Positions 5,796 to 33,488 of a stretch of DNA of 33,488 bases are shown piece after piece (position 1 is the stretch's first letter; each line of letters opens with the position of its first letter). The notes under the pieces were generated by a model. It worked only from the letters and a program-made list of their open reading frames with translations, searched no databases and was not told where the DNA came from. The position numbers and the translations under genes were made by a program. Source of the stretch: a virus; IMG/VR virus record IMGVR_UViG_3300017971_000173, positions 1 to 33,488 of that record. One strand, written 5' to 3'.

Positions 5796-5881
5796 AATAC
5801 TTTCTCCTATATATGATATATATCAATAAATATGTTCATATAAATACTAGTAACGATAATAAAAAAATTAGAGAGGAAATT

Positions 5882-6349
5882 ATGGCACAAGAGATTTTAG
5901 TTTCTGACAATGTTGCATATTCTCAAGATGACAAACAATTATTAAGAAACATCTATCGAAAAACTAACGAGCTCGTATATATCATAAATACTAAAGATAC
6001 GGGTATATTTAATGATGAAGAATTCTTCACATCACAACAATGGTATGTTGGAAAAGATCAAGCAAGACAGCAAATGATATTTAGAAAAGTTATAGAATTT
6101 GGAGCGCTACCAAATACAGGCACTACTAACGTTGCGCATAACCTCAATCCTGGTGGAACGATAAATAATACTTGGGACTTTGTAAAGATATATGGCACAG
6201 CAAAAGACCCAGTAACTCCACAATGGATACGACTTGCACATCCAGCTATAACTATCGTGATAACCAATACTAATGTGAGCATAACAACAACTGCCAATTT
6301 AAGTGCATACACAGAAACTAGAGTAATACTTGAGTATACTAAACCTTAA
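5882..6349 (+). CDS. Hypothetical beta-rich protein; a lone plus-strand gene inside the minus-strand tail module.
   Basis: The track ORF is 5813..6349. The likely start is ATG 5882, preceded by GAGAGGAAATT. 155 aa with a T/N-rich C-terminus (ITIVITNTNVSITTTANLSAYTETRVILEYTKP). Its stop overlaps the stop of convergent gene 6346..7536 by 4 nt. Confidence 0.6.
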   Translation: MAQEILVSDNVAYSQDDKQLLRNIYRKTNELVYIINTKDTGIFNDEEFFTSQQWYVGKDQARQQMIFRKVIEFGALPNTGTTNVAHNLNPGGTINNTWDFVKIYGTAKDPVTPQWIRLAHPAITIVITNTNVSITTTANLSAYTETRVILEYTKP

Positions 6350-7536
6350 AAACTTAATGAGGGTTCTACATCAATCATAATCGCATTAATAGTAAGTTCT
6401 TGATAAGGAATATCATCATCAAGCATATTTTCATCTGAAAATCCCAAAGCTAAAGCAACACTCTCTGCAGATGCTTGAAGAAACACATCATGCCAAAGCC
6501 TCGATTGAGTAGATTCTTTCTCAACTAAAGCATAGGCAACTGTGTCAAGAGTATTATCTCCAAGATAAAAATTGGGAACATCTGCCTGAACAGTAGAGTT
6601 GTTTGGTAGTCCAGCTACTATTACGTTACCGTTAATAGCAGTTCTATTCACATTAAATGAAATTTTGTTAATAGATGTACCATAGCCCTGTGACATATAT
6701 GGATTGAACTGCTTGGTAGTTATTAAAATTAGGTCTATAAGTGCAAGCGTTCCATCTCCTAGGTAGTTACCAACAGTAAGGGTGCCATTATCTGTTATTC
6801 TAACAGTATCACCATCAACCACAGATTGTATTTTATACGAACCATTAAAGTTTACAAGAAGCGAGTTCTCTACTCTGATCCTATTGCTTGTAGTTAATTG
6901 ATGATTGTATACTTTAAGGTCTACATTATTTGCATCAAATCTTGTCATACTAATAATACTTTGCGAAGCATTATTCTTATAAGCGTTCGAATTAAACAAA
7001 AATGTATACCCCCTATGATTCCCTAACAATACCTTCGGTTGAACTATTAGACTTCCACTTGGACGATTATATATTGTTCCAAGTGCGGTATACAAGTCTA
7101 AAATCAGACTAAAAGTATTATTGCGAAAATTATATGCCAATAATCTGTTGCCATAAATATTATTAAGAGTGGTTGACATTAAAACATATATGAATTCATC
7201 TGCAGAATCTTTATAGATAGTTCCAAACCTATATTCATATGTATCATAATCATCATCAAGAGCTATACTCATCTTGTTAACATTTCTACCGTCATAAAAA
7301 TAAAAGCCAAAGTTATTAGCAAACATAAGCATATTATTGACTTCCACAACTTCGGTAGATCTGTTACCGTGCGTATCATCCACTAGGGCAATCTGGAATG
7401 GTTCTCTATAATTACCTGTAGGTACTAACTCATATATAGCATCAAGTCCAAATACTATTAACCTTCCATCAAGTATTTCTGCATTTCGTATTATTGTTCC
7501 CGCAGGAAGATCTACAAAACCCCCCTTGTTGCTCAC
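6346..7536 (-). CDS. Tail nozzle-position protein (T7 gp12 position), downstream part. Opens at GTG with no SD, in frame with 7552..8436.
   Basis: 396-codon ORF whose first codon is GTG (rc of 7534-7536). It has the same frame as the upstream ORF and is separated from it by TAG plus 15 nt. No AGGAG-like motif occurs in the 30 nt upstream. Beta-rich sequence (GRLIVFGLDAIYELVPTGNYREPF...). Confidence 0.5.
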   Translation of the reverse strand: MSNKGGFVDLPAGTIIRNAEILDGRLIVFGLDAIYELVPTGNYREPFQIALVDDTHGNRSTEVVEVNNMLMFANNFGFYFYDGRNVNKMSIALDDDYDTYEYRFGTIYKDSADEFIYVLMSTTLNNIYGNRLLAYNFRNNTFSLILDLYTALGTIYNRPSGSLIVQPKVLLGNHRGYTFLFNSNAYKNNASQSIISMTRFDANNVDLKVYNHQLTTSNRIRVENSLLVNFNGSYKIQSVVDGDTVRITDNGTLTVGNYLGDGTLALIDLILITTKQFNPYMSQGYGTSINKISFNVNRTAINGNVIVAGLPNNSTVQADVPNFYLGDNTLDTVAYALVEKESTQSRLWHDVFLQASAESVALALGFSDENMLDDDIPYQELTINAIMIDVEPSLSF

Positions 7537-7551
7537 ATCTGGTGGAGAATA

Positions 7552-8436
7552 CTATGAGTCTACAGAGAATGCATCTCCAAATGCACTATATCGTATGCGG
7601 TTTGGGTGTATTATTGCGTCAGCTGGATTCCCCTCTCTTTCTGTAGTATTAAGCAATAACAGTCTTTGTTGGAAATTAATAACATATCTACATCTTCTTA
7701 CATTAAAGTTTGCAACTGCTGATGTAGCAGGAAGCAGGTTTGTAAATACGGGTGTTGTAGAAGTATAATATCTCAAGCTATTATCACTTTTTGCTGCAAC
7801 TATTAATGCGGATTCACCTGATGTAGCACTCTGAAAGTTAACCCAACTAATGCGTTGCTCATCTGCTAATGTAAATAATCCAGCACCGCCAGTCACATAC
7901 TCCCAACCTCCAGTCGCACTATCATATTTATACGCGCGTTGACGATCAAACGCGAATTCAAGATTTCCTCCAGAAGAAAGATTATAGGTTGCAAATCCAA
8001 TAACTGGCATACATGGATACCAATATACAGTTGCACCAACAGGCGCCCCCGTAATATCTACTGTTCCAACACCCGCAACTATATTAAAATTTCCCGTTGC
8101 TCCCGCAGGAGATACACTCATGGCGCCAACCGCCTGATATGATGTAAATATTGTATTCCCTACAGAAAATTGTTGCCCAACCTCTGCAACCCCAGGCACT
8201 ATTGTGGCAGCTAGGTTTCCAGTTACGGGATCTGTGGTACCTATATTAACCCTAAGCCGTGAGGTTAAACCTCTTGCATCTGTATCATCTAAAAACCTTG
8301 CTGCAGGCCTACGCTTAATTTTACCCTCATATATAACCATATTGTTAAGAACTTGAAAAGCATCATCTGGAATCAAAAACTGTACAAAGTCTGTCTTGAG
8401 TCCATGATTGAATGGCGCTATGAGTATCTTATCCAT
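7552..8436 (-). CDS. Tail nozzle-position protein, upstream part (ends at the in-frame TAG 7552-7554).
   Basis: 294-aa ORF with ATG 8436 and SD TAGGAGGTAACATG. Together with 6346..7536 it would give about 696 codons, the size expected for a podovirus nozzle between an adaptor-position gene and the internal core genes. Confidence 0.5.
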   Translation of the reverse strand: MDKILIAPFNHGLKTDFVQFLIPDDAFQVLNNMVIYEGKIKRRPAARFLDDTDARGLTSRLRVNIGTTDPVTGNLAATIVPGVAEVGQQFSVGNTIFTSYQAVGAMSVSPAGATGNFNIVAGVGTVDITGAPVGATVYWYPCMPVIGFATYNLSSGGNLEFAFDRQRAYKYDSATGGWEYVTGGAGLFTLADEQRISWVNFQSATSGESALIVAAKSDNSLRYYTSTTPVFTNLLPATSAVANFNVRRCRYVINFQQRLLLLNTTEREGNPADAIIHPNRIRYSAFGDAFSVDS

Positions 8437-8444
8437 GTTACCTC

Positions 8445-9443
8445 CTAAAAATTATCAAAGTAGAACCATGAATCAGTTAGATTTTCTGAACCTGTAAATA
8501 TGGTAGATGTCCTATCTTTAGATTTATTAAGATGAGTTTTACGCATAACAAATACTTTTTGGCGATCATATTCAGGCATTATACGCGCAACGGTTTCATG
8601 ATCAGAAGAATCTTCAAGAATTTTTTTAGCAGCACCATATGCTATAAGTTGCCACCATTCTTTGATCAATGGTGTATCAGCATCATTTACAAATGCAGTT
8701 GGCTGAACTCTTACTTGGAGCTTTACTTCATAGACTTTGTCTGGGACAGGTCTAAAAGTAAACGTATTGTCAAAAAATAACACTGCATTGGGTATAGTTG
8801 GCTTATAAGAAAAACACTCATATGTTATAGCCTGTCCAGCTGCTGGTGCAAGTGGAAAGGTTATATTAATCACACCTGTTAAATAATTAATATTACCTAT
8901 GTTGTTATCAGCATTATCTCTCATTTCACCAATAATTGAGGATATGCGACCATAGCCATCTGTTGTTGGAACATCACGCGCAATCATCGCATCATTATTT
9001 AAATCCAATGCTCCAATAACAACTGACCCCTGCAATACATCAGTTGGAAGACTATAAGTAAAAGCCGTAGCAATACCATTACCACTACCTATACTACCTA
9101 GTGTCTTTCTTTCTCTATAATAATTATAAAAATTCTCTGGATATTGATACATCCGTAGCTGTCTTCCGGCCAAATATATTGGTCTATCGGTCATTACTAC
9201 AAAATCTTTAAAATCTTTAAGATTGAGGATGAAATTTCCAGCTGTTGTGCTGTATGAAGCCACATTGGGAGTTGTAGTAAACGATATATTCTTAAATAGG
9301 TCAGAAGTTTGGACCATCTGAGGGAAATCATACAAGTAGAATGTATTAATATACCCAAGAATAGAGGCATCAGAAATTTGGCTCGTGTTTGGGCGTTTAG
9401 TTAATAATCTAACCTTATTTCTAATATCAAGTAATGTTGACAT
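8445..9443 (-). CDS. Virion protein, adaptor / tail-tubular-A position.
   Basis: 332-aa ORF with SD (rc of 9448-9456 GGAGGGAG). Positioned between the capsid-proximal genes and the nozzle-position gene. No motif recognised. Confidence 0.4.
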   Translation of the reverse strand: MSTLLDIRNKVRLLTKRPNTSQISDASILGYINTFYLYDFPQMVQTSDLFKNISFTTTPNVASYSTTAGNFILNLKDFKDFVVMTDRPIYLAGRQLRMYQYPENFYNYYRERKTLGSIGSGNGIATAFTYSLPTDVLQGSVVIGALDLNNDAMIARDVPTTDGYGRISSIIGEMRDNADNNIGNINYLTGVINITFPLAPAAGQAITYECFSYKPTIPNAVLFFDNTFTFRPVPDKVYEVKLQVRVQPTAFVNDADTPLIKEWWQLIAYGAAKKILEDSSDHETVARIMPEYDRQKVFVMRKTHLNKSKDRTSTIFTGSENLTDSWFYFDNF

Positions 9444-9878: not shown

Positions 9879-10832
9879 TTATATTCCAAATGTATCGCCT
9901 GCAATCCAATGAATTACATCATTAGCAGCACCACCAGCAGCGGTAGCCCCACCTTTGATTTCAAATCCTCTGAATTGAGTATTTGTTATTGGCCCACTAA
10001 GTGGTATAACTTCAGCATATTTGTTTAGCCCTTCTCCTGTTGTTGGGAATGCAAACGCTGTATATCCTGAGGAATCTATATCAACTGTAATTGTATTAGT
10101 ACCAAGAGCTGTATCGATAGCAAGTATTTTTGCTTCTGCAAGATTTATTTCCTTCATGCCAAATTCTGGCGGACACATAATTCTTACATAGTCACCAACT
10201 GCATATTCGTGAGTTACTGTCATTTTGATAACAGTTGTGGCACCGGCAGTAATAGCCGATATAAATCTATTGCGAGGATACCAAACTTTCTCATACTTAA
10301 CTTTATAAAAACCGGCTGTTGTTGCAACGCTACTTGCCACCATGTTGATTAATTCTAAGCTTGTATTTGCAACAATATTATCAATAGTAAAGTCCATGCC
10401 TTGAAGTTGTGTTGCTCCTGTAACATTTCTCATTCTAATAATATCACCGTCTACCAATCCAGCTGTACTTGTTAACGATACAACAGGAGGTGCGGCACTT
10501 GTGATAGCTGTAACCGTAGTATTAACCGCAGATAGAGGATTGTTCCCAGTGTTTATTTTAGATATTCCTGAACCTGCTGCAAGAAGAGTGCTTTCCAGCG
10601 TGAGGGCACCGCCAGTAGTTTTTCTTTCTGCCATACCATAGTTCTGCGTTGCTGCATTAGGCGCTTGCTGCCAATATGTTTTGACAATCTGATTATTGCC
10701 AACTGCTGTTGTCGGCCACTGTGTGGCATTCATAAGTTTAATCCAATTAGCATCCAAAGGAACTTCCAGAAACTTATCGTTACCATCGGAAGTATATGTA
10801 CCTTGCATTATCATACTTTGAGACATAGCCAT
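9879..10832 (-). CDS. Virion structural protein directly downstream of the major capsid gene (decoration or head-proximal protein?), with an internal duplication.
   Basis: 317-aa ORF with SD AAGGAGTATAATTATG. Two similar segments are present: LVDGDIIRMRNVTGATQLQGMDFTIDNIV and AVGDYVRIMCPPEFGMKEINLAEAKILAID. They resemble the small beta-barrel GD.V.I...G...LNG repeat often seen in phage structural proteins. A strong hairpin follows the gene. Confidence 0.55.
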   Translation of the reverse strand: MAMSQSMIMQGTYTSDGNDKFLEVPLDANWIKLMNATQWPTTAVGNNQIVKTYWQQAPNAATQNYGMAERKTTGGALTLESTLLAAGSGISKINTGNNPLSAVNTTVTAITSAAPPVVSLTSTAGLVDGDIIRMRNVTGATQLQGMDFTIDNIVANTSLELINMVASSVATTAGFYKVKYEKVWYPRNRFISAITAGATTVIKMTVTHEYAVGDYVRIMCPPEFGMKEINLAEAKILAIDTALGTNTITVDIDSSGYTAFAFPTTGEGLNKYAEVIPLSGPITNTQFRGFEIKGGATAAGGAANDVIHWIAGDTFGI

Positions 10833-13385: not shown

Positions 13386-13643
13386 ATGAAGGTTATAAAT
13401 GCAATTGCACTTTTGACATTGCTCTCTTCACTTACGATATGTCCAGCGAACAAACATAGAAAGCTGCGGGTTTATAAAAGACCTAGAACTGTAATGCAAA
13501 GAGATCTGTACAGAAACCAAGATCGTAAAAAAACACTCTGTACGCCAGATGTTATGAATCTTAGTGGAAAGATTGCCGCATCCATCATACAAGGAGGAGC
13601 GATAATCATTGGAGCTGTCTTAAGAGCTCTCATAGATAAATAA
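13386..13643 (+). CDS. Small secreted or membrane protein (island gene 1).
   Basis: SD GGAGGAGGATTAATATG. N-terminal signal-like segment MKVINAIALLTLLSSLTIC and C-terminal hydrophobic segment IAASIIQGGAIIIGAVLRALI. Confidence 0.65.
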   Translation: MKVINAIALLTLLSSLTICPANKHRKLRVYKRPRTVMQRDLYRNQDRKKTLCTPDVMNLSGKIAASIIQGGAIIIGAVLRALIDK

Positions 13644-13694
13644 GCGTTTCGTGTAATGGCCTGGTGAAATATCTGGGCCGCTTAATCATATGTC

Positions 13695-13723
13695 TTGACA
13701 CAATATTTATCATGTGTTATACT
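13695..13723 (+). promoter_or_regulatory. Sigma70-type promoter: TTGACA-17 nt-TATACT.
   Basis: TTGACA at 13695-13700 and TATACT at 13718-13723, upstream of island gene 2. Confidence 0.6.
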
Positions 13724-13751
13724 GTTAATACAAGATATGAAAGGAACACAC

Positions 13752-13928
13752 ATGATTGAATCACTAATAGTTTTGTTTGGATTTGGAATATTGGTATTAG
13801 GATTGATAATATTTTTTAAGACATTATTAATGATCTCTGCCAGAGATTACAGGAGAAAGTTAGAGCTTGCACATGCAAGTAAATGCTGTTGCAACTCTTT
13901 CTGCAAGAGAAATAAGGATTTTAAGTGA
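13752..13928 (+). CDS. Small membrane protein with a Cys-rich tail (island gene 2).
   Basis: The first 29 nt of track ORF 13695..13928 are a TTGACA-17-TATACT promoter, so the start is ATG 13752 (AAAGGAACACAC upstream) or ATG 13737. TM segment IESLIVLFGFGILVLGLIIFFKTLLMI; tail KCCCNSFCKRNK. Confidence 0.55.
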   Translation: MIESLIVLFGFGILVLGLIIFFKTLLMISARDYRRKLELAHASKCCCNSFCKRNKDFK

Positions 13929-14167
13929 TGTATAAAATATTGCTTGCTTCATTACTACTTTTCACGACACTCGGGGGCATGAAGAAGGCCCCCGAATGGA
14001 CCGAGAAAGATTTTCAGCTCGCAAGAAGACTTATCAAGGTGCTTAACGCGGTTGAAGATCTTAAAAGCGAAATAAAAAAACGGATAACTGAATGTGAAGA
14101 AAACACAAAGAAGCTCTTCGAGGAAGAACTCGAAAGACTTAAAAAAAATAAGGATTTATATGAATAA
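13928..14167 (+). CDS. Small signal-anchored coiled-coil protein (island gene 3).
   Basis: GTGATG at 13925-13930 overlaps the upstream TGA. N-terminus MYKILLASLLLFTTLGG, followed by a charged helical region. Confidence 0.6.
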   Translation: MYKILLASLLLFTTLGGMKKAPEWTEKDFQLARRLIKVLNAVEDLKSEIKKRITECEENTKKLFEEELERLKKNKDLYE

Positions 14168-14516
14168 AATTACATTTGAGGATTTAAGGAGCAAAGGAAA
14201 AGAAATCATCTGGAACAAAGAAAGGCTTGAAGACGGAAACTATAAAGTAACTATTACATTTGATCATGACGTAAAGAAATCAATAATCATGCAAGCTGTT
14301 CCTGGTCAATATACAGACAAAGACGGAGTCACATTCAAAGAAAAGCCAGAATTAAAAAAAGAAGACTCTGAAAAGCTCGTTGACTCAAGAATTCAAACCG
14401 CACTTACACAACTTCAACAAGCAATCTTCACTTTTAATTATTATGGCGGCAAGATCGATGGATTTATTAGCTCCGGAGAAGCAAGTGCGAAAGATAACAG
14501 TAGTCCTCAGGGATGA
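14160..14516 (+). CDS. Hypothetical soluble protein (island gene 4, 118 aa).
   Basis: Internal ATG 14160 of track ORF 14094..14516, with AAGGATTTAT upstream. Overlaps the previous gene by 8 nt. Confidence 0.55.
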   Translation: MNKITFEDLRSKGKEIIWNKERLEDGNYKVTITFDHDVKKSIIMQAVPGQYTDKDGVTFKEKPELKKEDSEKLVDSRIQTALTQLQQAIFTFNYYGGKIDGFISSGEASAKDNSSPQG

Positions 14517-14682
14517 AACTGAACGGCAGTTCGAGTATATACTTAAATCTCGCGCTGAGCGTGATAGATGGCAAAAATTACCTAGCTATAAGGAAGTAAT
14601 GATAGAAGCAATGCGATTATTATATATCAAAGAACTAAAGGAAGTAAAGAAAGAAGCCAATGGAAAGACTAGAAAAGATTAA
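14458..14682 (+). CDS. Ribbon-helix-helix (Arc/CopG-like) DNA-binding protein candidate (island gene 5).
   Basis: The sequence RKITVVLRDETERQFEYILKS...SYKEVMIEAMRLLYIKE has a beta-strand-helix-helix pattern. The start is ambiguous: ATG 14443, ATG 14458, or GTG 14485 preceded by GGAGAAGCAA. It overlaps the 3' end of the preceding gene. Confidence 0.45.
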   Translation: MDLLAPEKQVRKITVVLRDETERQFEYILKSRAERDRWQKLPSYKEVMIEAMRLLYIKELKEVKKEANGKTRKD

Positions 14683-14980
14683 GAAGATGGTAGGACTCGA
14701 CAAAGAGAGTGCACTATTACTTAAGAACCAACAAATCAAGGAAAGACAGAAGATAGATGATTCCAATAAGAGACTGCTTTCTATGTGCTTTGAGAATGCT
14801 CTCATATTGTTTTACGATACTGTTGACGAAAGACTAGAGCCTAATACAGGCAAGATTACCAAACGACAAACTATATATTTATCTCCAAGATCTAATGCGA
14901 AATTTAATGAGTTAGCCTTTAGACATAACTATGTTCTCCAAGACCTAGCTAACATAATAATAAAAAAAATTTATGGATAA
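14660..14980 (+). CDS. Second ribbon-helix-helix candidate (island gene 6); the RHH-like motif is at the C-terminus.
   Basis: 106-aa ORF. The C-terminal KRQTIYLSPRSNAKFNELAFRHNYVLQDLANIIIKKI fits a strand-helix-helix pattern. An alternative start is ATG 14687. Confidence 0.45.
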   Translation: MERLEKIKKMVGLDKESALLLKNQQIKERQKIDDSNKRLLSMCFENALILFYDTVDERLEPNTGKITKRQTIYLSPRSNAKFNELAFRHNYVLQDLANIIIKKIYG

Positions 14981-15522: not shown

Positions 15523-17637
15523 CTATAATTCCTGCTGAAACGCTTGCTCATCAGGTTGCAGCATCTCTTCTTGAAACGCTTGCTCCTGAGGAAATTCTTG
15601 TTGTGCTATAGGAGCATTAGCCATCTCCTGGTCTAATATTGCATCCTGCAAAGGAACTTCCTTAACTGTATCTTCACGCTCAGCCTGTATAATTTGCATC
15701 AAATCAACTAGCTCATCAATCTTATTTGGATCTGACTGCTCAAGATCTTTTAAAACCTTTATAGCTTCTAGATTTGTTTCTTGCTCCTTGCGGGCTGTAT
15801 CCATCGCATCATTAATCATATTGAACTTATCTTGCTCAACCTCACTCTCACGAGTTTTAGCTAATGCTTGATCAGCCTGAGCTTTAGAGTTCATCATATT
15901 CATGGTAGCTTGCTGCTCTGCCATTGCTGCCTGAGCTTGTTGTTGCTGCATTTGTGAAACTTCTTGTTTTTGTTGATCTATGGCCTTGATAAGCTCATCT
16001 TTATTTTGTATATTAGCCGCATTTATCATCGCAGAATCAGGAATCTCAATACCAAGTTCTTTAAGAACTACAAGCTCGGTAAATGCTTGTTGTCTTTGTG
16101 TAGATGTGTCAAACCCTTCTTCAATTGCAATATCATACTTTGCAAACTTCTTACTATAAAATTCTTGCGTAGGATCTTCTCCCAAAATCCTTCTAACTTT
16201 TCCAGGTGTATAATTATTTTGAATTGTCTTAACAATTATTTCGCCTAGAAGTTTTTGAGAATGGTCCAATTGATCAAATAAAGTTTGTTGCTGAATCAAC
16301 GCCCATCCATGGCGCTGGCGTGCAAGTGCTGCTGACTTAAAGTCATCTGCAACACCTAAAAGTTCCTCAGAAGCACCAGAGATTTCTTGGAACTCTCTAC
16401 CAAGCGCCTCTGTTAATTGAGGCCACGAAGCTGGAATTTCATTTTGTGGTATAGGAGCAAAATCACCCATATCGGCATTCCTCTTGAGTCGTATCATGCG
16501 CCCCTGACCAGTCTTCATCGGAGCATCTGGATCTACAAGTGATGATTCTTTATAAACATATCCATTAGTAGCAACAGATTCGGCATAATCAAGCTCTATT
16601 ATTTTCCTACGATTGTATAGATACTGAGTATCTCTTAAACCCCTTACAATGCCCTGTATTCGTAGTGGAAAATTATGAACGTCTGGGTCAAAGTATCCAA
16701 ATACCGGAACGAATGGATAAGTATCTATACCCAACGGATTAACATCATCGTACATTACAGATCCATTTACTAATAAAGCCAGCTTAACTGTAGGAACCTT
16801 AGTATCTATCACCTTGACTTGTGGATACATAGCAATAAATTCGCGCAATGCTTCATTACTACCTGTCCACTCCAATGTCTCCCCTAAATTAACATCGACA
16901 AGCAGCTTTTGCTTTCTGTAATCTCTATAATAAAACTCATCATATGCCAATAAATTCTTATTTAGAAGCTCGTTTTCAGGAAGATAGGGGAATTTCCCAT
17001 CATTGTAATAAGACGTCATCGGTTCTATTAATTCTTTCTTATCCGGGATAAGCGACATGACAGCATCTTTACACAAAAATGATCGTTTCCACATTGCATT
17101 ACAATCAGAAAGATCTTTTTTTCTAAAGTATGGGTCAATAACAAAACTATTATAGCTACAATTATCTACTTTAATATCTCCTGATACCGGATCATTTCTA
17201 TAGTCAACCCACACTTGCATTAAATTCATGCCTGTAACTATAGCCCCATTATAGGATTCTGATAAGACATCAAGTATATTTGCATTCTTAGAGGCTGCAA
17301 ATAAAAGCTTCGTAAGTTGATCTGCCGTCTGCTGATCAGAATTTTCAACTGGAGTTGCCTTCATAGTTTTACGTGTTCTTCGCTGATAACCGGAAAGGAG
17401 ATTTGTTATTCGCCTAATATGATTAAAGCTGAAATTCTTTCTAGTTCTTATGGGAACATTATAAAGCTCACTCCATAAAGTCTGATCGCCTGCATTAAAG
17501 CGCGCATCAATACTTGCCTCATGCCAATACGTCTGATTTACCATCATAGCATCATTATAGAATGTTTCGACCATCTCTCTTACGGCAGCATCTCCACTGT
17601 TGATTGTTATAATGTTTCCCTGAGGAAATAAAGCCAT
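15523..17637 (-). CDS. Portal protein.
   Basis: 704 aa, located in the packaging/head module near TerL. The N-terminal region (YNDAMMVNQTYWHEASIDARFNAGDQTLW...IRRITNLLSGYQRRTRK) is portal-like. The long Q/E-rich helical C-terminus is reminiscent of the P22-type portal barrel. SD TAGGAGTAGTTTAATG. Confidence 0.85.
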   Translation of the reverse strand: MALFPQGNIITINSGDAAVREMVETFYNDAMMVNQTYWHEASIDARFNAGDQTLWSELYNVPIRTRKNFSFNHIRRITNLLSGYQRRTRKTMKATPVENSDQQTADQLTKLLFAASKNANILDVLSESYNGAIVTGMNLMQVWVDYRNDPVSGDIKVDNCSYNSFVIDPYFRKKDLSDCNAMWKRSFLCKDAVMSLIPDKKELIEPMTSYYNDGKFPYLPENELLNKNLLAYDEFYYRDYRKQKLLVDVNLGETLEWTGSNEALREFIAMYPQVKVIDTKVPTVKLALLVNGSVMYDDVNPLGIDTYPFVPVFGYFDPDVHNFPLRIQGIVRGLRDTQYLYNRRKIIELDYAESVATNGYVYKESSLVDPDAPMKTGQGRMIRLKRNADMGDFAPIPQNEIPASWPQLTEALGREFQEISGASEELLGVADDFKSAALARQRHGWALIQQQTLFDQLDHSQKLLGEIIVKTIQNNYTPGKVRRILGEDPTQEFYSKKFAKYDIAIEEGFDTSTQRQQAFTELVVLKELGIEIPDSAMINAANIQNKDELIKAIDQQKQEVSQMQQQQAQAAMAEQQATMNMMNSKAQADQALAKTRESEVEQDKFNMINDAMDTARKEQETNLEAIKVLKDLEQSDPNKIDELVDLMQIIQAEREDTVKEVPLQDAILDQEMANAPIAQQEFPQEQAFQEEMLQPDEQAFQQEL

Positions 17638-25102: not shown

Positions 25103-25807
25103 ATGATAAAGATAGAAGAAATCAAAAACCAAATACAAGCATACGACAAACTTATTGAAGAACTTGTTGAAGCAAACGCACCAGACAAAGTAATCGGCAA
25201 ATTAGAGATTAAGAGACAAAAGCTTGTTGAACGATGCAACAAGCTTGAAGCAAACAACAGCACCAAGGAGGATCCATATGCAAAGATCGCTAAAGGCCAA
25301 TCGCTACCAATACCTCAAGAAGATCCATATGCTGGACAAATAAATCAAAGAAGAGATGTATTTGCGGATAAATCAATAGAGATTGAAAAACTCAACAGAG
25401 CTATAGAGATATATGATGACATGATTCTGAAGATAGGCCTAAACAATCCAGAAGATGTTGCAATCAATGAGATCAAAAATAAAAGATCTTCTCTTGCAAG
25501 AAGAGTTGATATCCTTGTTTCCGAAACCAATGAAGTTGAATACAAACAATCTGCTTACGAAGTAATAAAAAAAATAAATAAACTCGATACCATAAACGAC
25601 AAAATACACGATATTAGAATAGTCATCAGAAGGACAACCAAAAACTTATTCAAGATTATCACATCTCCAGACTATACAGCTGAAGACATGCCTCCAGAAG
25701 TCAATGAACTTTTAATTCTAAAGCAACACAAAAGACGACTAGAAGAGCAAGAACAACAAATACTAAACTCAATAAGTAAATTCTTCAAAGAAAGGTTAAT
25801 AATTTAA
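25103..25807 (+). CDS. Coiled-coil protein, first gene of the rightward operon (234 aa).
   Basis: ORF with SD AAGGAAGACGATG, about 45 nt downstream of the promoter at 25030-25058. Heptad-like charged sequence. Confidence 0.7.
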   Translation: MIKIEEIKNQIQAYDKLIEELVEANAPDKVIGKLEIKRQKLVERCNKLEANNSTKEDPYAKIAKGQSLPIPQEDPYAGQINQRRDVFADKSIEIEKLNRAIEIYDDMILKIGLNNPEDVAINEIKNKRSSLARRVDILVSETNEVEYKQSAYEVIKKINKLDTINDKIHDIRIVIRRTTKNLFKIITSPDYTAEDMPPEVNELLILKQHKRRLEEQEQQILNSISKFFKERLII

Positions 25808-25816
25808 GAATAAAGC

Positions 25817-25845
25817 TTGACGCAGGATCAACTAGATGCTATAAT
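25817..25845 (+). promoter_or_regulatory. Sigma70-type promoter in front of erf: TTGACG-17 nt-TATAAT.
   Basis: TTGACG at 25817-25822 and TATAAT at 25840-25845. Confidence 0.6.
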
Positions 25846-25890
25846 GTTATTAGTAATTGAGGGATAACTAAAACTTTAAGGGAAACGATT

Positions 25891-26637
25891 ATGGAAAAGA
25901 AAGAATTAATAGAACTGATCAATATGATTGTAGATGCAAGACGTAAAGAGGTTGCTGAACAAAAAATTAAACCTATGAGCGATAGTATAGATCAACTTGC
26001 ACCAGCTTTGTCAAAGCTACAGGCAGCCGTCAAGACTGTCATGCCAAATAGAATCAATGAATATTCTAAGTGCACATATGCTGATTTAGTTGTAATACTA
26101 GAAGAAGCAAGGCCATTATTTGATGAGTTTGGATTTAGCGTAGTACCAGTAGAAGATGACTACGACGGAATAAAATATTTAAGAACCATGCTAATACACA
26201 GCAGTGGCCAATATATTTCTTCACTTGTAGAGATGATAATTCAAGACACAGAAAAAAATAAAAGATTAACTCCAATCCAAGCATATGGATCAGCTCTCTC
26301 TTACCACAAGCGATACTCAATAGCAAATATGCTCGGCATCACTGTAAGCAAAGACCCTAACGACGACGATGGGCAGCCAGGGGGCACACAAGGACAAACA
26401 CAGGCAAACAAAAATAACAAAGATGATATGAACACACCAAAAAAAGAAATCTTCCTCTCTGAGGGAGAAATAAAATTTATTAATGATAGGGTTAGGGGAT
26501 ATGAGGACGTAAAGAAAAAATTATTAACTACTCTACGCAAACCAAGCCTCGATAAATGCAACAAGAGTATGTTTGACATTATTGTTGAGTTTGTAGATAG
26601 CCACATACAGGCTAAAAAAAATAATCGTCTACCTTAA
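25891..26637 (+). CDS. erf: ERF-family single-strand annealing recombinase.
   Basis: The sequence YADLVVILEEARPLFDEFGFS...IHSSGQYI...LTPIQAYGSALSYHKRYSIANMLGITVSKDPNDDDG matches the conserved Erf pattern (Y..L..I....P.L...G....H.SG....Q..GSA.TY.RRY.....LGI...DDDG) known from P22 Erf. Confidence 0.8.
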   Translation: MEKKELIELINMIVDARRKEVAEQKIKPMSDSIDQLAPALSKLQAAVKTVMPNRINEYSKCTYADLVVILEEARPLFDEFGFSVVPVEDDYDGIKYLRTMLIHSSGQYISSLVEMIIQDTEKNKRLTPIQAYGSALSYHKRYSIANMLGITVSKDPNDDDGQPGGTQGQTQANKNNKDDMNTPKKEIFLSEGEIKFINDRVRGYEDVKKKLLTTLRKPSLDKCNKSMFDIIVEFVDSHIQAKKNNRLP

Positions 26638-26641
26638 CTGC

Positions 26642-26942
26642 TACAGTTTTTTCTTAGCTCATTAGGAGAACAGTGAACAAGGAAACCTTAGACACAACCC
26701 CTACTTTTACAGTTATAGACAAAGACCACAAGATACAAAAGCAAGTAGATGAACTTAAAGAAATGCTTGAAAGCCAAAATAAGCAAATACCTTTAATATA
26801 TTGCAGAGCAATGTTTGCAGGGCGCGAGGAAAAGATTATTGGATTCGCCCTGGACTGCCTTAAGGCCTATTTATTAAAACAATTAGTTTCGCGTGAGAGC
26901 CAACTATAAAAAGAGAACTATTACAGTTCTTTCTTAGCTCAA
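26642..26942 (+). repeat. 20-nt direct repeats (19/20 identical) bracketing ORF 26673..26909.
   Basis: TACAGTTTTTTCTTAGCTCA at 26642-26661 and TACAGTTCTTTCTTAGCTCA at 26923-26942. Confidence 0.85.
26673..26909 (+). CDS. Hypothetical protein (78 aa), GTG start, flanked by 20-nt direct repeats.
   Basis: GTG 26673 preceded by AGGAGAACA. Confidence 0.5.
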   Translation: MNKETLDTTPTFTVIDKDHKIQKQVDELKEMLESQNKQIPLIYCRAMFAGREEKIIGFALDCLKAYLLKQLVSRESQL

Positions 26943-27040: not shown

Positions 27041-27712
27041 TTAACATACTAATGATATTGAAAGCCAACCGCGTGGCGCAGATGCGCCAACAGTTTGAAC
27101 ATCTACAACTTTTGTGCCACCTGATACCGTTACAGTTGTTGTAACCGTATCTGATGCGTCAAGGTCTGCTAATACTGATAGTGGATTCGAACTTTGACCA
27201 CTAACGTTTGACGATATAGATCGAGCATTACACACAGCGCCCTCACAAGTTCTATTACTTGTAACTATTTGTATGTTTTGTGCTGTAAAAGCCGTTGTAT
27301 CAACATCATTTAACCACACACAAAGCGATATGCGATATCTACCGGTTACTGGTGCTATCCATGTTCCCGTTCCCGTATTAAAATCTGAATTCTGATCAAA
27401 TATTTCATCATCCCATATTATTGTATATGTCGAGCCATCACCCGTTACCGAATTAGCGGCTACAGCCATTACAACTGTAGTAGCTGGTTGCAACGGCATA
27501 ATCCTACATCCAGTAGAATCTGTAATAAAAGTATCTGTAGTTCCCAACACTCCAGAAGCACTTATTTTAAAGCTATCTGAATCCGTATCATCCACCCCAA
27601 TGGCAAACTTGCTGGAAGTATTTATTTCTAGCTTCACAACACTATCACCGGACGCTCCAGGATCAAATGTAAGTGAGCCAGTAGAATTATTTATACTATT
27701 AATCTTGGCCAT
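27041..27712 (-). CDS. C1q/TNF-like jelly-roll receptor-binding protein (short fibre), paralog 2.
   Basis: 223 aa. IWDDEIFDQNSDFNTGTGTWIAPVTGRYRISLCVWL resembles the C1q core (..F...N.......TG.FTAPV.G.Y.F). The N-terminus is shared with the upstream paralog (INSINN.T..LT.DPGASGDS...IGVDDTD.SF.IS). SD GGAGGTGTAGATG. Confidence 0.6.
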   Translation of the reverse strand: MAKINSINNSTGSLTFDPGASGDSVVKLEINTSSKFAIGVDDTDSDSFKISASGVLGTTDTFITDSTGCRIMPLQPATTVVMAVAANSVTGDGSTYTIIWDDEIFDQNSDFNTGTGTWIAPVTGRYRISLCVWLNDVDTTAFTAQNIQIVTSNRTCEGAVCNARSISSNVSGQSSNPLSVLADLDASDTVTTTVTVSGGTKVVDVQTVGASAPRGWLSISLVC

Positions 27713-28363
27713 CTACACCTCCAAGTTTCCAGACCACCACGTTTGAGGATCACTGGAGCCATTAGACTCTACATCTACAGTCTGAGTTGAGCCAACAACC
27801 TGTATCGCTAGGACTGCTGTATCAGAAGCGTCCATGTCTGCAAGCACACTCATATAGCAAGAATATTCGTCAGCGCTACTTCTAGATCCGCCTGGATTGT
27901 TTTGGATGAGATAAGTCCTATTGCTTGTTTCAAGCCTGAATGAATTATTGTTATGCGTTGAAGTAAGATCTCCCAAAAGCATAGACGCCTCAAAACGGTA
28001 TCGCCCTGTTACGGGTGCGGTAAATGTAGTTCCTGAAAAATCACTGTTTTGATCAAATATTTCGGAATCCCAAGACGCTGTATATTTAACGTTGTTCCCA
28101 GTTACATTGCTTTTTGTACTCGTTAATATAACAAGAAACGCTGACTGTAATGGCATAGTTCGCTCACCTGCGCTACTCATGATAAATGTATCATTGGTAC
28201 CCAACGCGCTTCCTTGGCTGATGCGAAAAGAATCGTCTGTATCATCGACGCCTATGCGAAACTTACCAGTACCAATATTGAACTGAACAAAGCTATCTCC
28301 ACTAGCGCCGGGATCAACAGTTAACTCACTTGTCTTATTGTTTATACTATTAACTATAGCCAT
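27713..28363 (-). CDS. C1q/TNF-like jelly-roll receptor-binding protein (short fibre), paralog 1.
   Basis: 216 aa. SWDSEIFDQNSDFSGTTFTAPVTGRYRFEASMLL is a close match to the C1q-domain signature region. Confidence 0.6.
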   Translation of the reverse strand: MAIVNSINNKTSELTVDPGASGDSFVQFNIGTGKFRIGVDDTDDSFRISQGSALGTNDTFIMSSAGERTMPLQSAFLVILTSTKSNVTGNNVKYTASWDSEIFDQNSDFSGTTFTAPVTGRYRFEASMLLGDLTSTHNNNSFRLETSNRTYLIQNNPGGSRSSADEYSCYMSVLADMDASDTAVLAIQVVGSTQTVDVESNGSSDPQTWWSGNLEV

Positions 28364-29582: not shown

Positions 29583-32174
29583 CTAAACAACATTAATATT
29601 GCCCTTTGCACCAGGTCCAACAGTCCATACAGTATTAGCAGTAGTGCATACCAACTCAATTGCGTCATGATCATCCGTAGACTCTAAATATCCACCTGTA
29701 CCAGTCGTGGTAACTGTAGATTCATCCCAACGGATAGTCTCACCTGCGTTCTGTGCTATCTTCCAACCTCCTGCACCTTTACCCATAACTTTAACAACTG
29801 AGCCAAATGCGGCAGTATCTGGAAGCGTTATCGTGACTTGTGATGCGTTATTAGCAACATAGCCATTATTCACAGCAGCAGCCTGAGAGGTTCCTGTAAC
29901 CTCGTTCCAAATAATACCACCTACAGCTTGAAAAGTTGGCAATGCGCCAGCCCCATTTGATGTCAATACTTGGCCAGCAGTTCCAACACTAGCTATAGAC
30001 TGTAGTGGATTTGTGGTTGTAGTACCTCCACAAAGCACAGCATACGCGGTTGTAGTTGAAACTCCAGTTCCACCATTAGCTACAGCCACCGGACTATCTA
30101 AATTCACTGTCACTGTAGAACCAGCAGCCGCACTTGTAATACCCGTTCCTCCTGCAATCGTAAATACAGCCGAGGCAGCCTGAGCCGTTCCGCTATCTCC
30201 TGCAAGAGTAAGGTCGTCTATTGTCTCTAATGCTGATTGAACCGTTGTGTCAGCTGCACTCAATATATGATCAAAGTTCGTTGTATCTGTAAGCACCAAT
30301 GAGGCAGTGGTTGCAGTTACACCAGAAAAACTAGATCTAAGAGTTTCTTTTGCAATAACCACTTGCACTATAGATGCTGTTGACTCTTCATAAACTATAT
30401 AACCAAGCTGAGCCACTTCTAATTGTGCAAGTTCTCCTGTCGCTGTAGGTATAGAATCGTTAGCAATAGCAGTATCAGCTTGAGCCAAATTATTATATTC
30501 AGCATCACCCATAATAGAGAAATATGTTGGTGTTGCTGAAGCAATATCATCCTTGCATACATATAACCTATTAACAGTATATTTATTGGTTCCTATAGCT
30601 GTTGGAGTACCTGCATTATTCCAAGTACCATCAAATGTATCACTTTGAGCATTACGTGCCCATTTGCCTGAACCAAGTGTATAATATTGTTCAAATACAA
30701 CAGCAACTCCGCCACTATCAGGTATGATTGTTTCAAGCCCGTGATCCTCAAGTTGGTCTGCTCCTGAAATTTCTATCTTCTGAGTTCCGTTAATCGTAAT
30801 ATTCGCACCGCCTTGCATGTCTGATATAACAGAACCAACAGTGTCATGAGCCCAGACTGATGTGCTCCAAGGGAACTGATATGGATGATTTTCTTTTACT
30901 GTAACCTGAATATTTGTAGGCGCGGTTGAGTCTCTCAGGCACTCAAATAAAACAATGTTATTTGCAAACAGCGATTCTGAATAGGTCGTTGTTTTTTGTA
31001 TAGTTCCCGTACCATCTATATAAATATAATAAGTATTACCCGCAGTCATACCAGTAACAGATTGTGGCGCCGTCCATGATATAGGTTTCCCACCAATATA
31101 CCCCGTACCTGATTGAGACAATGTAAAGTCGCCAAGTACTGTGTCGTCAAAATACGGAGCCCCACCATCCCAAGCTTCAAAGCCTGTCATTATACCAAAT
31201 CCGGCGCTAGAGCCAAGCTCTCCATTGGCATCAATGATTACTGCTTGTGTTGCACCTGCTGGAGTAACTCCATGTATGCCAGCTATAAAACAATTATTTT
31301 GTTGTCCTGGTCCTGTACCTGTAGTTCCTAAGCGGATCTTATTGTTGTCGCCAACGGTTCCAAGATTCCCGATAATAATATTGTCGGACTCTGATCCAGC
31401 AAGCAGGGATCCAGCTTCATCACCCATGGCAATATTATCTGCCCCATCTGTGATATTGCCGAGCGAGTCAAAACCCACAGAAACATTCCGCTCTCCGTCA
31501 GTAAGATTAGTACACGCAAAAGCTCCCAGAGCGACCGAGTAATTTGCATTATTGATATTCAATAACGATCGAAAACCAAGACCAGTATTATACTGTCCTG
31601 TGTTGAGTGAGCCGCCAGTCGTGTCTCCAAGAAATGTATTCCCCGTTCCAAGTGCTTGCAGAAAAATTTGGCCACCAACTCTAAATGTGCCCTCAGTAAA
31701 TGCCGCATTGGTTGCAGGCATACTAAAGTTACCGCCAGTTGTCACCGTGCCTGGAAATGATGGAGTAATTAAACTAAGATCTTGATCGCACATAGTAATT
31801 GTTCTAGTGTTACCTGTAGTTATCTGATCAGCTTGAAAAGCTATCTCTCTTGTATTATCACCATCATCTAATATTCTAAAAACATCATCTTCAAACGTTG
31901 GGCCGATACCACTTCCAGCTGCGTTTATTGTTATAGATCCTGCACCATTAACTATCCCAATGTTTGTTCCAGCGGTAAGAGTTGCAAGCACAGTCGGAGC
32001 TGCGGTTGATCCGATTGGGATTTGTCCGTCTGTTGCAACTGCGAGTGAATTAAGAACTCCGCCTGCAGCACCAATTACTAAAGCATTAGGAGTTGCACCT
32101 GTTATTTCTCCAGGATTTGTAATGTCGAGAGGCAGCCCTAAAGCTGTCGCGGCAGTTATACATATCTGTGACAT
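29583..32174 (-). CDS. Long tail fibre / receptor-binding protein (863 aa).
   Basis: G/T/A/N-rich. The N-proximal module ATDGQIPIGSTAAPTVLATLTAGTNIGIVNGAGSITINAAG is shared with the wrap-around fibre. A second GQVLTSNGAGALPTFQAV motif is present. Many plus-strand shadow ORFs overlap it. Confidence 0.8.
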   Translation of the reverse strand: MSQICITAATALGLPLDITNPGEITGATPNALVIGAAGGVLNSLAVATDGQIPIGSTAAPTVLATLTAGTNIGIVNGAGSITINAAGSGIGPTFEDDVFRILDDGDNTREIAFQADQITTGNTRTITMCDQDLSLITPSFPGTVTTGGNFSMPATNAAFTEGTFRVGGQIFLQALGTGNTFLGDTTGGSLNTGQYNTGLGFRSLLNINNANYSVALGAFACTNLTDGERNVSVGFDSLGNITDGADNIAMGDEAGSLLAGSESDNIIIGNLGTVGDNNKIRLGTTGTGPGQQNNCFIAGIHGVTPAGATQAVIIDANGELGSSAGFGIMTGFEAWDGGAPYFDDTVLGDFTLSQSGTGYIGGKPISWTAPQSVTGMTAGNTYYIYIDGTGTIQKTTTYSESLFANNIVLFECLRDSTAPTNIQVTVKENHPYQFPWSTSVWAHDTVGSVISDMQGGANITINGTQKIEISGADQLEDHGLETIIPDSGGVAVVFEQYYTLGSGKWARNAQSDTFDGTWNNAGTPTAIGTNKYTVNRLYVCKDDIASATPTYFSIMGDAEYNNLAQADTAIANDSIPTATGELAQLEVAQLGYIVYEESTASIVQVVIAKETLRSSFSGVTATTASLVLTDTTNFDHILSAADTTVQSALETIDDLTLAGDSGTAQAASAVFTIAGGTGITSAAAGSTVTVNLDSPVAVANGGTGVSTTTAYAVLCGGTTTTNPLQSIASVGTAGQVLTSNGAGALPTFQAVGGIIWNEVTGTSQAAAVNNGYVANNASQVTITLPDTAAFGSVVKVMGKGAGGWKIAQNAGETIRWDESTVTTTGTGGYLESTDDHDAIELVCTTANTVWTVGPGAKGNINVV

Positions 32175-32581: not shown

Positions 32582-33488
32582 TTATGCTATTATCCAGAAT
32601 GTTAATATTACATCGCCATTAAGAGCTGCCGCACCTAAATTCTGATATGTCACGGTAAATGATCCTGCTGCAGGAACAACTCTTGTTACCGTACATTGAG
32701 CATCATTTGCGCCTTTATTAGCAATTGTACATATGATAGCTGAGTTAATAGTACACACACTATTTGTAACTGTAAGCACCTGAGATGCCGCTGCTGCAGT
32801 AGTTAAGCCAGTAAATGTTCCAACACCTGCATTAGCATTAATTGTAACTGCTGCCGCTGCCTGTGTATCAGTAACTGGTGTCATTGTTACAATACCAGCT
32901 GCATCTAAGCTTATACCTCCAGTTCCAGCCTGCAAGGTAGTTGAGCTTGTTGTATTTGTGCTGCCTGCGGTTAAATCACGTACGGCAGCTCCTGTGCAAA
33001 TATTAACAGCAAATGCATTTGCTCCAGTTCCTATATTTATAACGCCACCTGTAGAATCCGCTGCTATAGTTCCAGTAGACGTTAATGATGTGCCACCAGA
33101 TCCACTTTGAAGTAGCAAATCACTTGTTGTATTGGTTGACCCTATGGTTGTAGTATGAGCATTTGCACTAGCCCCAAAAGATGCGCCTCCTGTTCCACAA
33201 TCAACTACTGATGCGCTTGCACCTGTAGAAGATCCTACAGTTACCGTTCTTATTCCTGCAACACCAACATTAACTGCAAAATCATCTGCATCATTTCCTA
33301 TTCCAATTATTCCAGCAGAAGAATTGATCTCAACAACTCCATCTCCATCAATAAGTACAGTGTCATCTGAATTAAGAATAATATCGCCTGTACCAGTAGT
33401 TGCAACAGCAAAACTTCCTGTACCAGTATTTACGGCAACCCCTGTTGCTCCTGTTACATTACCTATAGTTATTGTTCTTGCTCCTGCA
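32582..33488 (-). CDS. C-terminal part of the wrap-around tail fibre (same gene as 1..1313).
   Basis: The track lists 32582..33118 from a TTG. I checked the same frame by hand from 33119 to 33488 and found no stop, and it is in phase with 1..1313 after removing the 33-nt overlap. Stop TAA at 32582-32584. Confidence 0.8.
   Translation of the reverse strand, partial: AGARTITIGNVTGATGVAVNTGTGSFAVATTGTGDIILNSDDTVLIDGDGVVEINSSAGIIGIGNDADDFAVNVGVAGIRTVTVGSSTGASASVVDCGTGGASFGASANAHTTTIGSTNTTSDLLLQSGSGGTSLTSTGTIAADSTGGVINIGTGANAFAVNICTGAAVRDLTAGSTNTTSSTTLQAGTGGISLDAAGIVTMTPVTDTQAAAAVTINANAGVGTFTGLTTAAAASQVLTVTNSVCTINSAIICTIANKGANDAQCTVTRVVPAAGSFTVTYQNLGAAALNGDVILTFWIIA
33456..33488. repeat. 33-nt terminal overlap identical to 1-33 (circular-contig signature).
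   Basis: ACATTACCTATAGTTATTGTTCTTGCTCCTGCA occurs at both ends of the window. Confidence 0.95.

Follow-up and report, generated by a model that had tools for sequence, protein, structure and literature searches.

We analysed a 33,488-nucleotide (nt) stretch of virus DNA (IMG/VR record IMGVR_UViG_3300017971_000173, positions 1 to 33,488; hereafter the window), in which two open reading frames (ORFs) on the minus strand are separated by an in-frame TAG codon within a predicted podovirus tail nozzle gene. The explanation that we consider most probable is that the window contains one ordinary nozzle gene in which a contig-specific change has converted TGG into TAG, either as a recent nonsense mutation or as a consensus error, and that the TAG is not a programmed feature of this phage lineage.

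The original prediction, which had been made by reading the DNA alone, described two ORFs lying 15 nt apart in a single frame. Its coordinates, the GTG that opens the second ORF and the TAG that closes the first (ORF 8436..7552, terminated by the reverse complement of 7552-7554) were all reproduced. Translation of 8436..6346 yields 696 codons with a sole internal stop, at codon 295. The 401 codons 3' of the TAG are all open (P ~2e-11 by chance at the stop-triplet frequency of the genome), and the other two frames over the same region contain 55 and 88 stops; the open frame following the TAG is hence not a product of chance. If the TAG terminates translation, the N-terminal 294 codons are the sole expected product. 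The 396-amino acid (aa) piece downstream is annotated by the Joint Genome Institute (JGI) as a separate protein (P0005), and the GTG at its opening corresponds to V301, a valine inside the nozzle gene, rather than to an established start.

The joined sequence had 22 matches among ~5.8 billion protein clusters, and 20 of these are single proteins of 686-839 aa sharing 26-69% identity with the query. These proteins cover 99-100% of the joined query in 17 instances, 90% in one and 60% in two, and the sole half-length match among the 22 is the window's own P0005 (396 aa). The family motif NRIRYS..G..F..DSWY crosses the TAG site unbroken in the alignment. Furthermore, we gathered 35 related loci from JGI, ENA, Logan and IMG/VR assemblies, and each of the 31 that span the TAG site is uninterrupted. 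These results support the proposal that the two ORFs represent a single gene. It had been stated beforehand that relatives with a break at this position would speak against one gene; the homologues instead run through the junction. For a reading as two separate genes we found neither a Shine-Dalgarno (SD) core before the GTG nor a split relative among the loci examined. On this comparative evidence, the two ORFs are one gene.

The identity of the codon at the TAG site in these relatives points to the nature of the change. At the DNA level, the window reads GAC TCA TAG TAT where relatives read GAT TCT TGG TAT, and the codon at the site is TGG in 25 of the 31 loci, TTC or TTT in six and a stop in none. 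The eleven closer relatives carry W at this position in ten cases and F in one, more distant members present F, H, Y, L, W or C, and W is also the aligned residue in the solved tail chain of Pa223 (9nwi_Y). The TGG of the relatives and the TAG of the window thus differ by one G>A transition (C>T on the plus strand, position 7553), and the ancestral codon at 7552-7554 was probably TGG, encoding Trp. According to the prediction, a coil separates beta strands at residues 284-305; residue 295 lies within it, just past the invariant residues R280, R282 and S284. As in an amber nonsense codon, the TAG lies one base away from a conserved sense codon and the frame downstream of it is intact. The features of the interrupted gene are collected in Table 1.

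Table 1. Coordinates of the interrupted nozzle gene and its parts in the window.
Feature	Coordinates	Strand	Remarks
Whole nozzle gene, 696 codons, TAG at codon 295	6346..8436	-	Single ~690-aa protein in relatives
SD region of the nozzle gene (AGGAGG)	8437..8450	-	Overlapped by the TAG stop (8445-8447) of the upstream 332-aa tail gene
N-terminal nozzle half, 294 codons	7555..8436	-	ATG start at 8436-8434; TAGGAGGTAAC directly 5' of the ATG
In-frame TAG, codon 295 of the joined frame	7552..7554	-	Probable ancestral codon TGG (Trp)
Five codons (YSPPD) between TAG and GTG	7537..7551	-	Kept as coding; identical in P0001 and P0002
C-terminal 396 codons and TAA, opening at GTG	6346..7536	-	Same frame as the N-terminal half

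The assignment of the joined gene to the podovirus nozzles rests on predicted structure and on profile comparisons. The AlphaFold2 model of the joined sequence, calculated with an alignment, is confident and all-beta, with a predicted local distance difference test (pLDDT) score of 84.3 and a predicted template modelling (pTM) score of 0.83. When this model was compared to the PDB with Foldseek, the top 20 matches were all podovirus portal-tail or tail complexes (E 1.5e-17 to 1.7e-9), originating from cyanophage A4, Pa223, SU10, VP1, Carin-1, E1004, T7, P-SCSP1u, HRP29, Kp7, Pan3 and P22. Among the entries that carry the nozzle label in their own names are 7boy_s (T7 gp12, also known as tail tubular protein B) and 8zkk_O (VP1 gp16). 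The best match in BFVD is a single-chain viral protein of 736 aa, with template modelling (TM) scores of 0.89/0.84. Consistent with these results, the family profile matched two sets of chains in the PDB: 9nwi_Y, a six-copy chain of the C6 Pa223 tail that its depositors labelled 'Capsid and scaffold protein' (E = 1.3e-9), and the VP1 nozzle gp16 (8zkk_O / 8zkm_E; E = 1e-5). Both profile alignments cross the TAG site. These matches to solved podovirus nozzles, obtained by fold and by family profile, agree with the T7-gp12-type nozzle of the original prediction, and the gene is predicted to encode a nozzle of the T7-gp12/P22-gp10 type.

The window gene resembles the podovirus nozzles (T7 gp12, P22 gp10, VP1 gp16, Pa223 9nwi_Y, SU10 and A4) in its predicted fold and Foldseek matches. 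Its place on the map, with genes for portal, capsid and tail ahead of it and three large genes behind, would also suit a nozzle, as on T7-like and P22-like maps. The gene differs from these nozzles in that its protein is only 9-13% identical to the solved ones, in its internal TAG and in the lack of a Pfam, PHROG or GenBank phage match: no model in Pfam or PHROGs recognises either half, megablast of 6000-9000 against 50,697 GenBank phage records returned nothing, and tblastn of the joined protein against the same records gave no match. The order of genes leading to the nozzle is portal (PHROG 156), capsid (PHROG 1357), a 317-aa gene, a 136-aa gene and a 332-aa gene matching the 'tail protein' PHROG 10775 (E = 9e-6); the nozzle is followed by genes of 262, 671 and 532 aa, with an opposite-strand 178-aa gene intervening. 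This order around the nozzle is kept in relatives. A phmmer search of the 332-aa gene product against the PDB gave no confirmation of it as the adaptor.

Two further observations were made on the nozzle and its neighbours. The 178-aa gene (5813-6349, plus strand), which lies between the nozzle and the three large genes, overlaps the nozzle stop by its last 4 nt and is kept in relatives at the same place and in the same orientation as a gene of 150-155 aa with 56-71% identity; it has no Pfam match. The 317-aa gene that follows the capsid gene (9879-10832, minus strand) matches DUF7243 and, weakly, E1_FCCH, a domain also annotated in the distant nozzle homologues P0014 and P0016 and in the best BFVD match, and the nozzle profile weakly matches residues 194-255 of an endosialidase (E ~0.009) through nozzle residues ~497-555. 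These matches suggest a small beta-barrel insertion domain shared by the 317-aa gene and the nozzle.

The conservation of the two halves bears on the age of the change. A leave-one-out test was applied to the columns that show no variation among the other 11 close family members. The window deviates at 1 of 39 such columns on the N-terminal side of the TAG and at 2 of 71 on the C-terminal side, and intact members show 1-9 departures in the N-terminal half and 0-10 in the C-terminal half in the same test. Identity to the nearest relative (P0001) is 72% in the N-terminal half and 67% in the C-terminal half, the same pattern as that seen between intact pairs. By these measures, neither half is less conserved than its counterpart in any intact member of the family. 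The lack of decay on either side of the TAG implies that the change would be very recent, or artefactual, or that the codon is read through.

The allele is also confined to this contig. Among ~15 billion proteins, both half-proteins are singletons found only on this one 33,488-nt JGI contig. An exact-pattern search around the TAG in IMG/VR identified no near-identical strain, and in scans of IMG/VR and JGI metagenomes that were seeded with proteins, no match exceeded 67% identity over the C-terminal-half query. An exact look-up of the 396-aa product did not retrieve it from the contig index. The closest relative over the whole nozzle gene shares 69% identity (tblastn).

Several points weigh against an accident restricted to this contig. 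The assembly is closed, with a 33-nt terminal overlap, and all other conserved genes are intact, which suggests that it represents a replicating population. In a population of that kind, one would not expect most genomes to carry an unrescued nonsense codon in an essential gene. No frameshift or other disruption is visible elsewhere, so that the assembly does not look error-prone in general. A consensus error and a real mutation are indistinguishable from one contig with singleton half-proteins.

With these points taken into account, we favour a single transition that would have turned a conserved Trp codon into a stop. It would be either a nonsense mutation of very recent origin that the assembly happened to capture, or an incorrect base in the consensus. 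If unsuppressed, translation would end after residue 294, yielding a fragment of ~33 kDa without more than half of the beta-rich nozzle body. The genome as written would then be unable to build a tail alone, and full-length nozzle would be obtainable only through amber suppression. The loss of self-sufficient tail assembly is the classical phenotype of amber mutants in T7 gene 12 and P22 gene 10. Like those mutants, the window presents a one-base change from sense to TAG in an essential tail gene, with an intact downstream frame and a full-length product that would require a suppressor; those, however, are laboratory mutants that were selected on suppressor hosts, whereas the putative allele described here is known from one metagenomic contig. 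In this reading, the feature is a lone classical amber-type nonsense codon or a consensus error, and not a new translational mechanism.

The use of TAG elsewhere in the genome bears on the alternatives to this explanation. The original prediction had counted TAG as the stop of 15 of 35 minus-strand coding sequences and had concluded that it is a genuine terminator. The count itself was reproduced (TAA 18, TAG 15, TGA 2; n = 35), but the 15 include the internal TAG, so that the genuine TAG terminators are 14 of 34. The conclusion stands, as 14 other genes end in TAG and the TAG-terminated portal gene stops where its homologues stop; wholesale reassignment of TAG is therefore excluded. The base after the internal TAG is a T, as at two genuine terminators in the genome. 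TAG-T is a strong termination context in E. coli, a rule that may not be that of the phage host. As a separate observation, TAG is an unusually common terminator in this genome, where it often coincides with the first three bases of the next SD sequence (TAGGAG), so that stop and ribosome-binding site overlap, as at 8445-8450, 2992-2997 and 29583-29588.

The best-surviving alternative, which we nevertheless regard as unlikely, is that the TAG is real and fixed and that the nozzle is completed by a host suppressor tRNA, or by low-level near-cognate readthrough or inefficient termination by release factor 1. This would be a natural conditional dependency, as opposed to a selected two-isoform design. 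It is consistent with the closed and otherwise intact assembly, with the 401 open and fully conserved codons downstream and with the five codons past the TAG, which still encode YSPPD as in relatives. In the wider family the site is occupied by W, F, Y, H, L or C, so that any of several residues inserted at the TAG could be functional, and since the next in-frame stop lies at a median of 6 codons past the genuine TAG terminators, suppression would add only short tails to most proteins. Nonetheless, the phage encodes no suppressor tRNA, 14 of its genes depend on termination at TAG, the internal TAG shares its TAG-T context with genuine terminators, and the allele lacks an independent observation, its half-proteins being singletons. 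If suppression did operate, this would be a natural conditional-lethal phage whose host range or burst would be tied to the suppression level of the host, and the 33-kDa fragment and a 77-kDa nozzle might both be made.

We consider it very improbable that translation terminates at the TAG and reinitiates at the GTG, generating fragments of 294 and 396 aa that would co-assemble as a split nozzle. The in-frame GTG lies 15 nt past the stop, the break falls within the predicted coil between beta strands of the model, and SD-independent restarts a short distance past a nonsense codon have precedents in T4 rIIB and lacI. The GTG, however, is not preceded by an SD core: the 15-nt stretch at -18..-4 (TAGTATTCTCCACCA) contains no GGAG, GAGG or AGGA, whereas one of these cores is present at -18..-4 in 28 of 33 minus-strand genes, compared to 12% of random 15-nt windows. 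In this respect the GTG is unlike most genes here, as originally noted. Furthermore, no relative is split, the break would remove a Trp, located just past R280/R282/S284, that is shared by 25 of the 31 loci (the other six have F) and by Pa223, and the YSPPD codons, which a restart would skip, are still conserved.

Even less credible is a deliberate use of the stop, through programmed readthrough of the kind that produces the Q-beta A1 protein or through reassignment of TAG (code 15), which would serve to make short and long isoforms or to delay late-gene expression. The first of these had been among the options raised by the original prediction. All that speaks for such uses is that a late structural gene contains an in-frame TAG. 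A stop is found in 0 of the 31 related loci, where the conserved codon encodes W or F and not Q, and TAG is the second most used terminator of the genome and is not depleted. The RNA 3' of the TAG (141-nt fold) shows no stimulatory structure (z = +0.85; 167 of 200 shuffled versions had an equally good or better fold), promoter-like and terminator-like sites occur at chance level without excess, and ARAGORN identified no tRNA gene in the window. In addition, a tblastn comparison of ORFs from six related contigs against the whole window, searching for internal stops, revealed no other conserved gene with an internal stop in the genome, as the few 'stops' in the alignments sit at gene boundaries. 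The in-frame stop thus affects 1 of about 46 genes, whereas in recoded phages in-frame stops occur in 26-71% of genes, TAG encodes Gln and suppressor tRNAs are frequent (bioRxiv 10.1101/2021.08.26.457843).

Reassignment of TAG was accordingly rejected, given the lone gene, the W or F in place of Gln, the 14 TAG terminators and the lack of a tRNA. The likeness to TAG-recoded phages is limited to an in-frame TAG within a late structural gene; the window differs from them in having a single gene hit, with TAG opposite W or F, no tRNA gene and frequent use of TAG as a terminator. With the minor coat protein A1 of Q-beta, the window shares an in-frame stop in the gene of a virion protein and a long open continuation, but the leaky stop of Q-beta is conserved and functional and gives a fixed product ratio, while the stop in the window is missing in all relatives. 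On the comparative data, programmed readthrough or recoding is contradicted. A bypass of the T4 gene 60 type was also discarded by inspection, because the frame is unchanged and the codons directly after the stop are conserved.

A second in-frame TAG/ATG pair in the window, at 27713/27712, was examined as a possible counterpart and set aside, since it joins two tandem paralogous genes that have their own SD and ATG and are separate in relatives. These adjacent genes of ~220 aa (27041-28363, minus strand) lie in the same frame with only the TAG and ATG between them, begin with MAIVNSINNKT and MAKINSINNST, respectively, and show a weak C1q-like match. In relatives they are present in two or three copies, mostly with TAA between them and often in other frames.

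The remaining observations concern the genome as a whole. The contig ends overlap exactly over 33 nt (1-33 and 33456-33488), which indicates a closed (circular or terminally redundant) assembly of ~33,455 bp. A large tail-fibre-like gene on the minus strand runs across the contig ends (1322..1 + 33488..32585) as an 868-codon open frame, and for this reason it is missing from ORF lists; its homologues measure 963-984 aa, with internal repeats. The otherwise minus-strand genome is interrupted by two plus-strand blocks (13386-14980 and 25103-26909). The first comprises small genes between the portal and scaffold-position genes and is conserved in relatives, and the second holds an ERF-family recombinase (25891-26637, E = 7.7e-19).

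The portal protein (15523-17637, minus strand) shares ~23% identity with those of the best-matching GenBank phages (Shewanella X14, Thalassomonas BA3 and Vibrio phages), and by sequence the lineage lies at a large distance from all cultured phages. The same gene order recurs in about a dozen relatives from metagenomes, which are 33-36 kb in length. In one of them (IMGVR_UViG_3300028840_003472, designated L053; 7346-10696), the large terminase is encoded by a 1117-aa ORF to which the 458-aa terminase of the window aligns in three blocks, and the inserts carry Intein_splicing and LAGLIDADG_3 domains, suggesting the presence of one or two inteins in this terminase. The terminase matches in two other relatives (L050 and L051) are likewise lengthened.

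For annotation, these results mean that the 294-aa and 396-aa calls should be merged into one nozzle gene flagged with an internal stop, and that the 'GTG start' should be kept out of further annotation. The case would bear on the natural dependence of phages on host suppressors only if the TAG were fixed in a thriving population. Beyond this contig, a previously unannotated family of ~690-aa metagenomic proteins is now placed, by predicted fold and family profile, among the podovirus nozzles.

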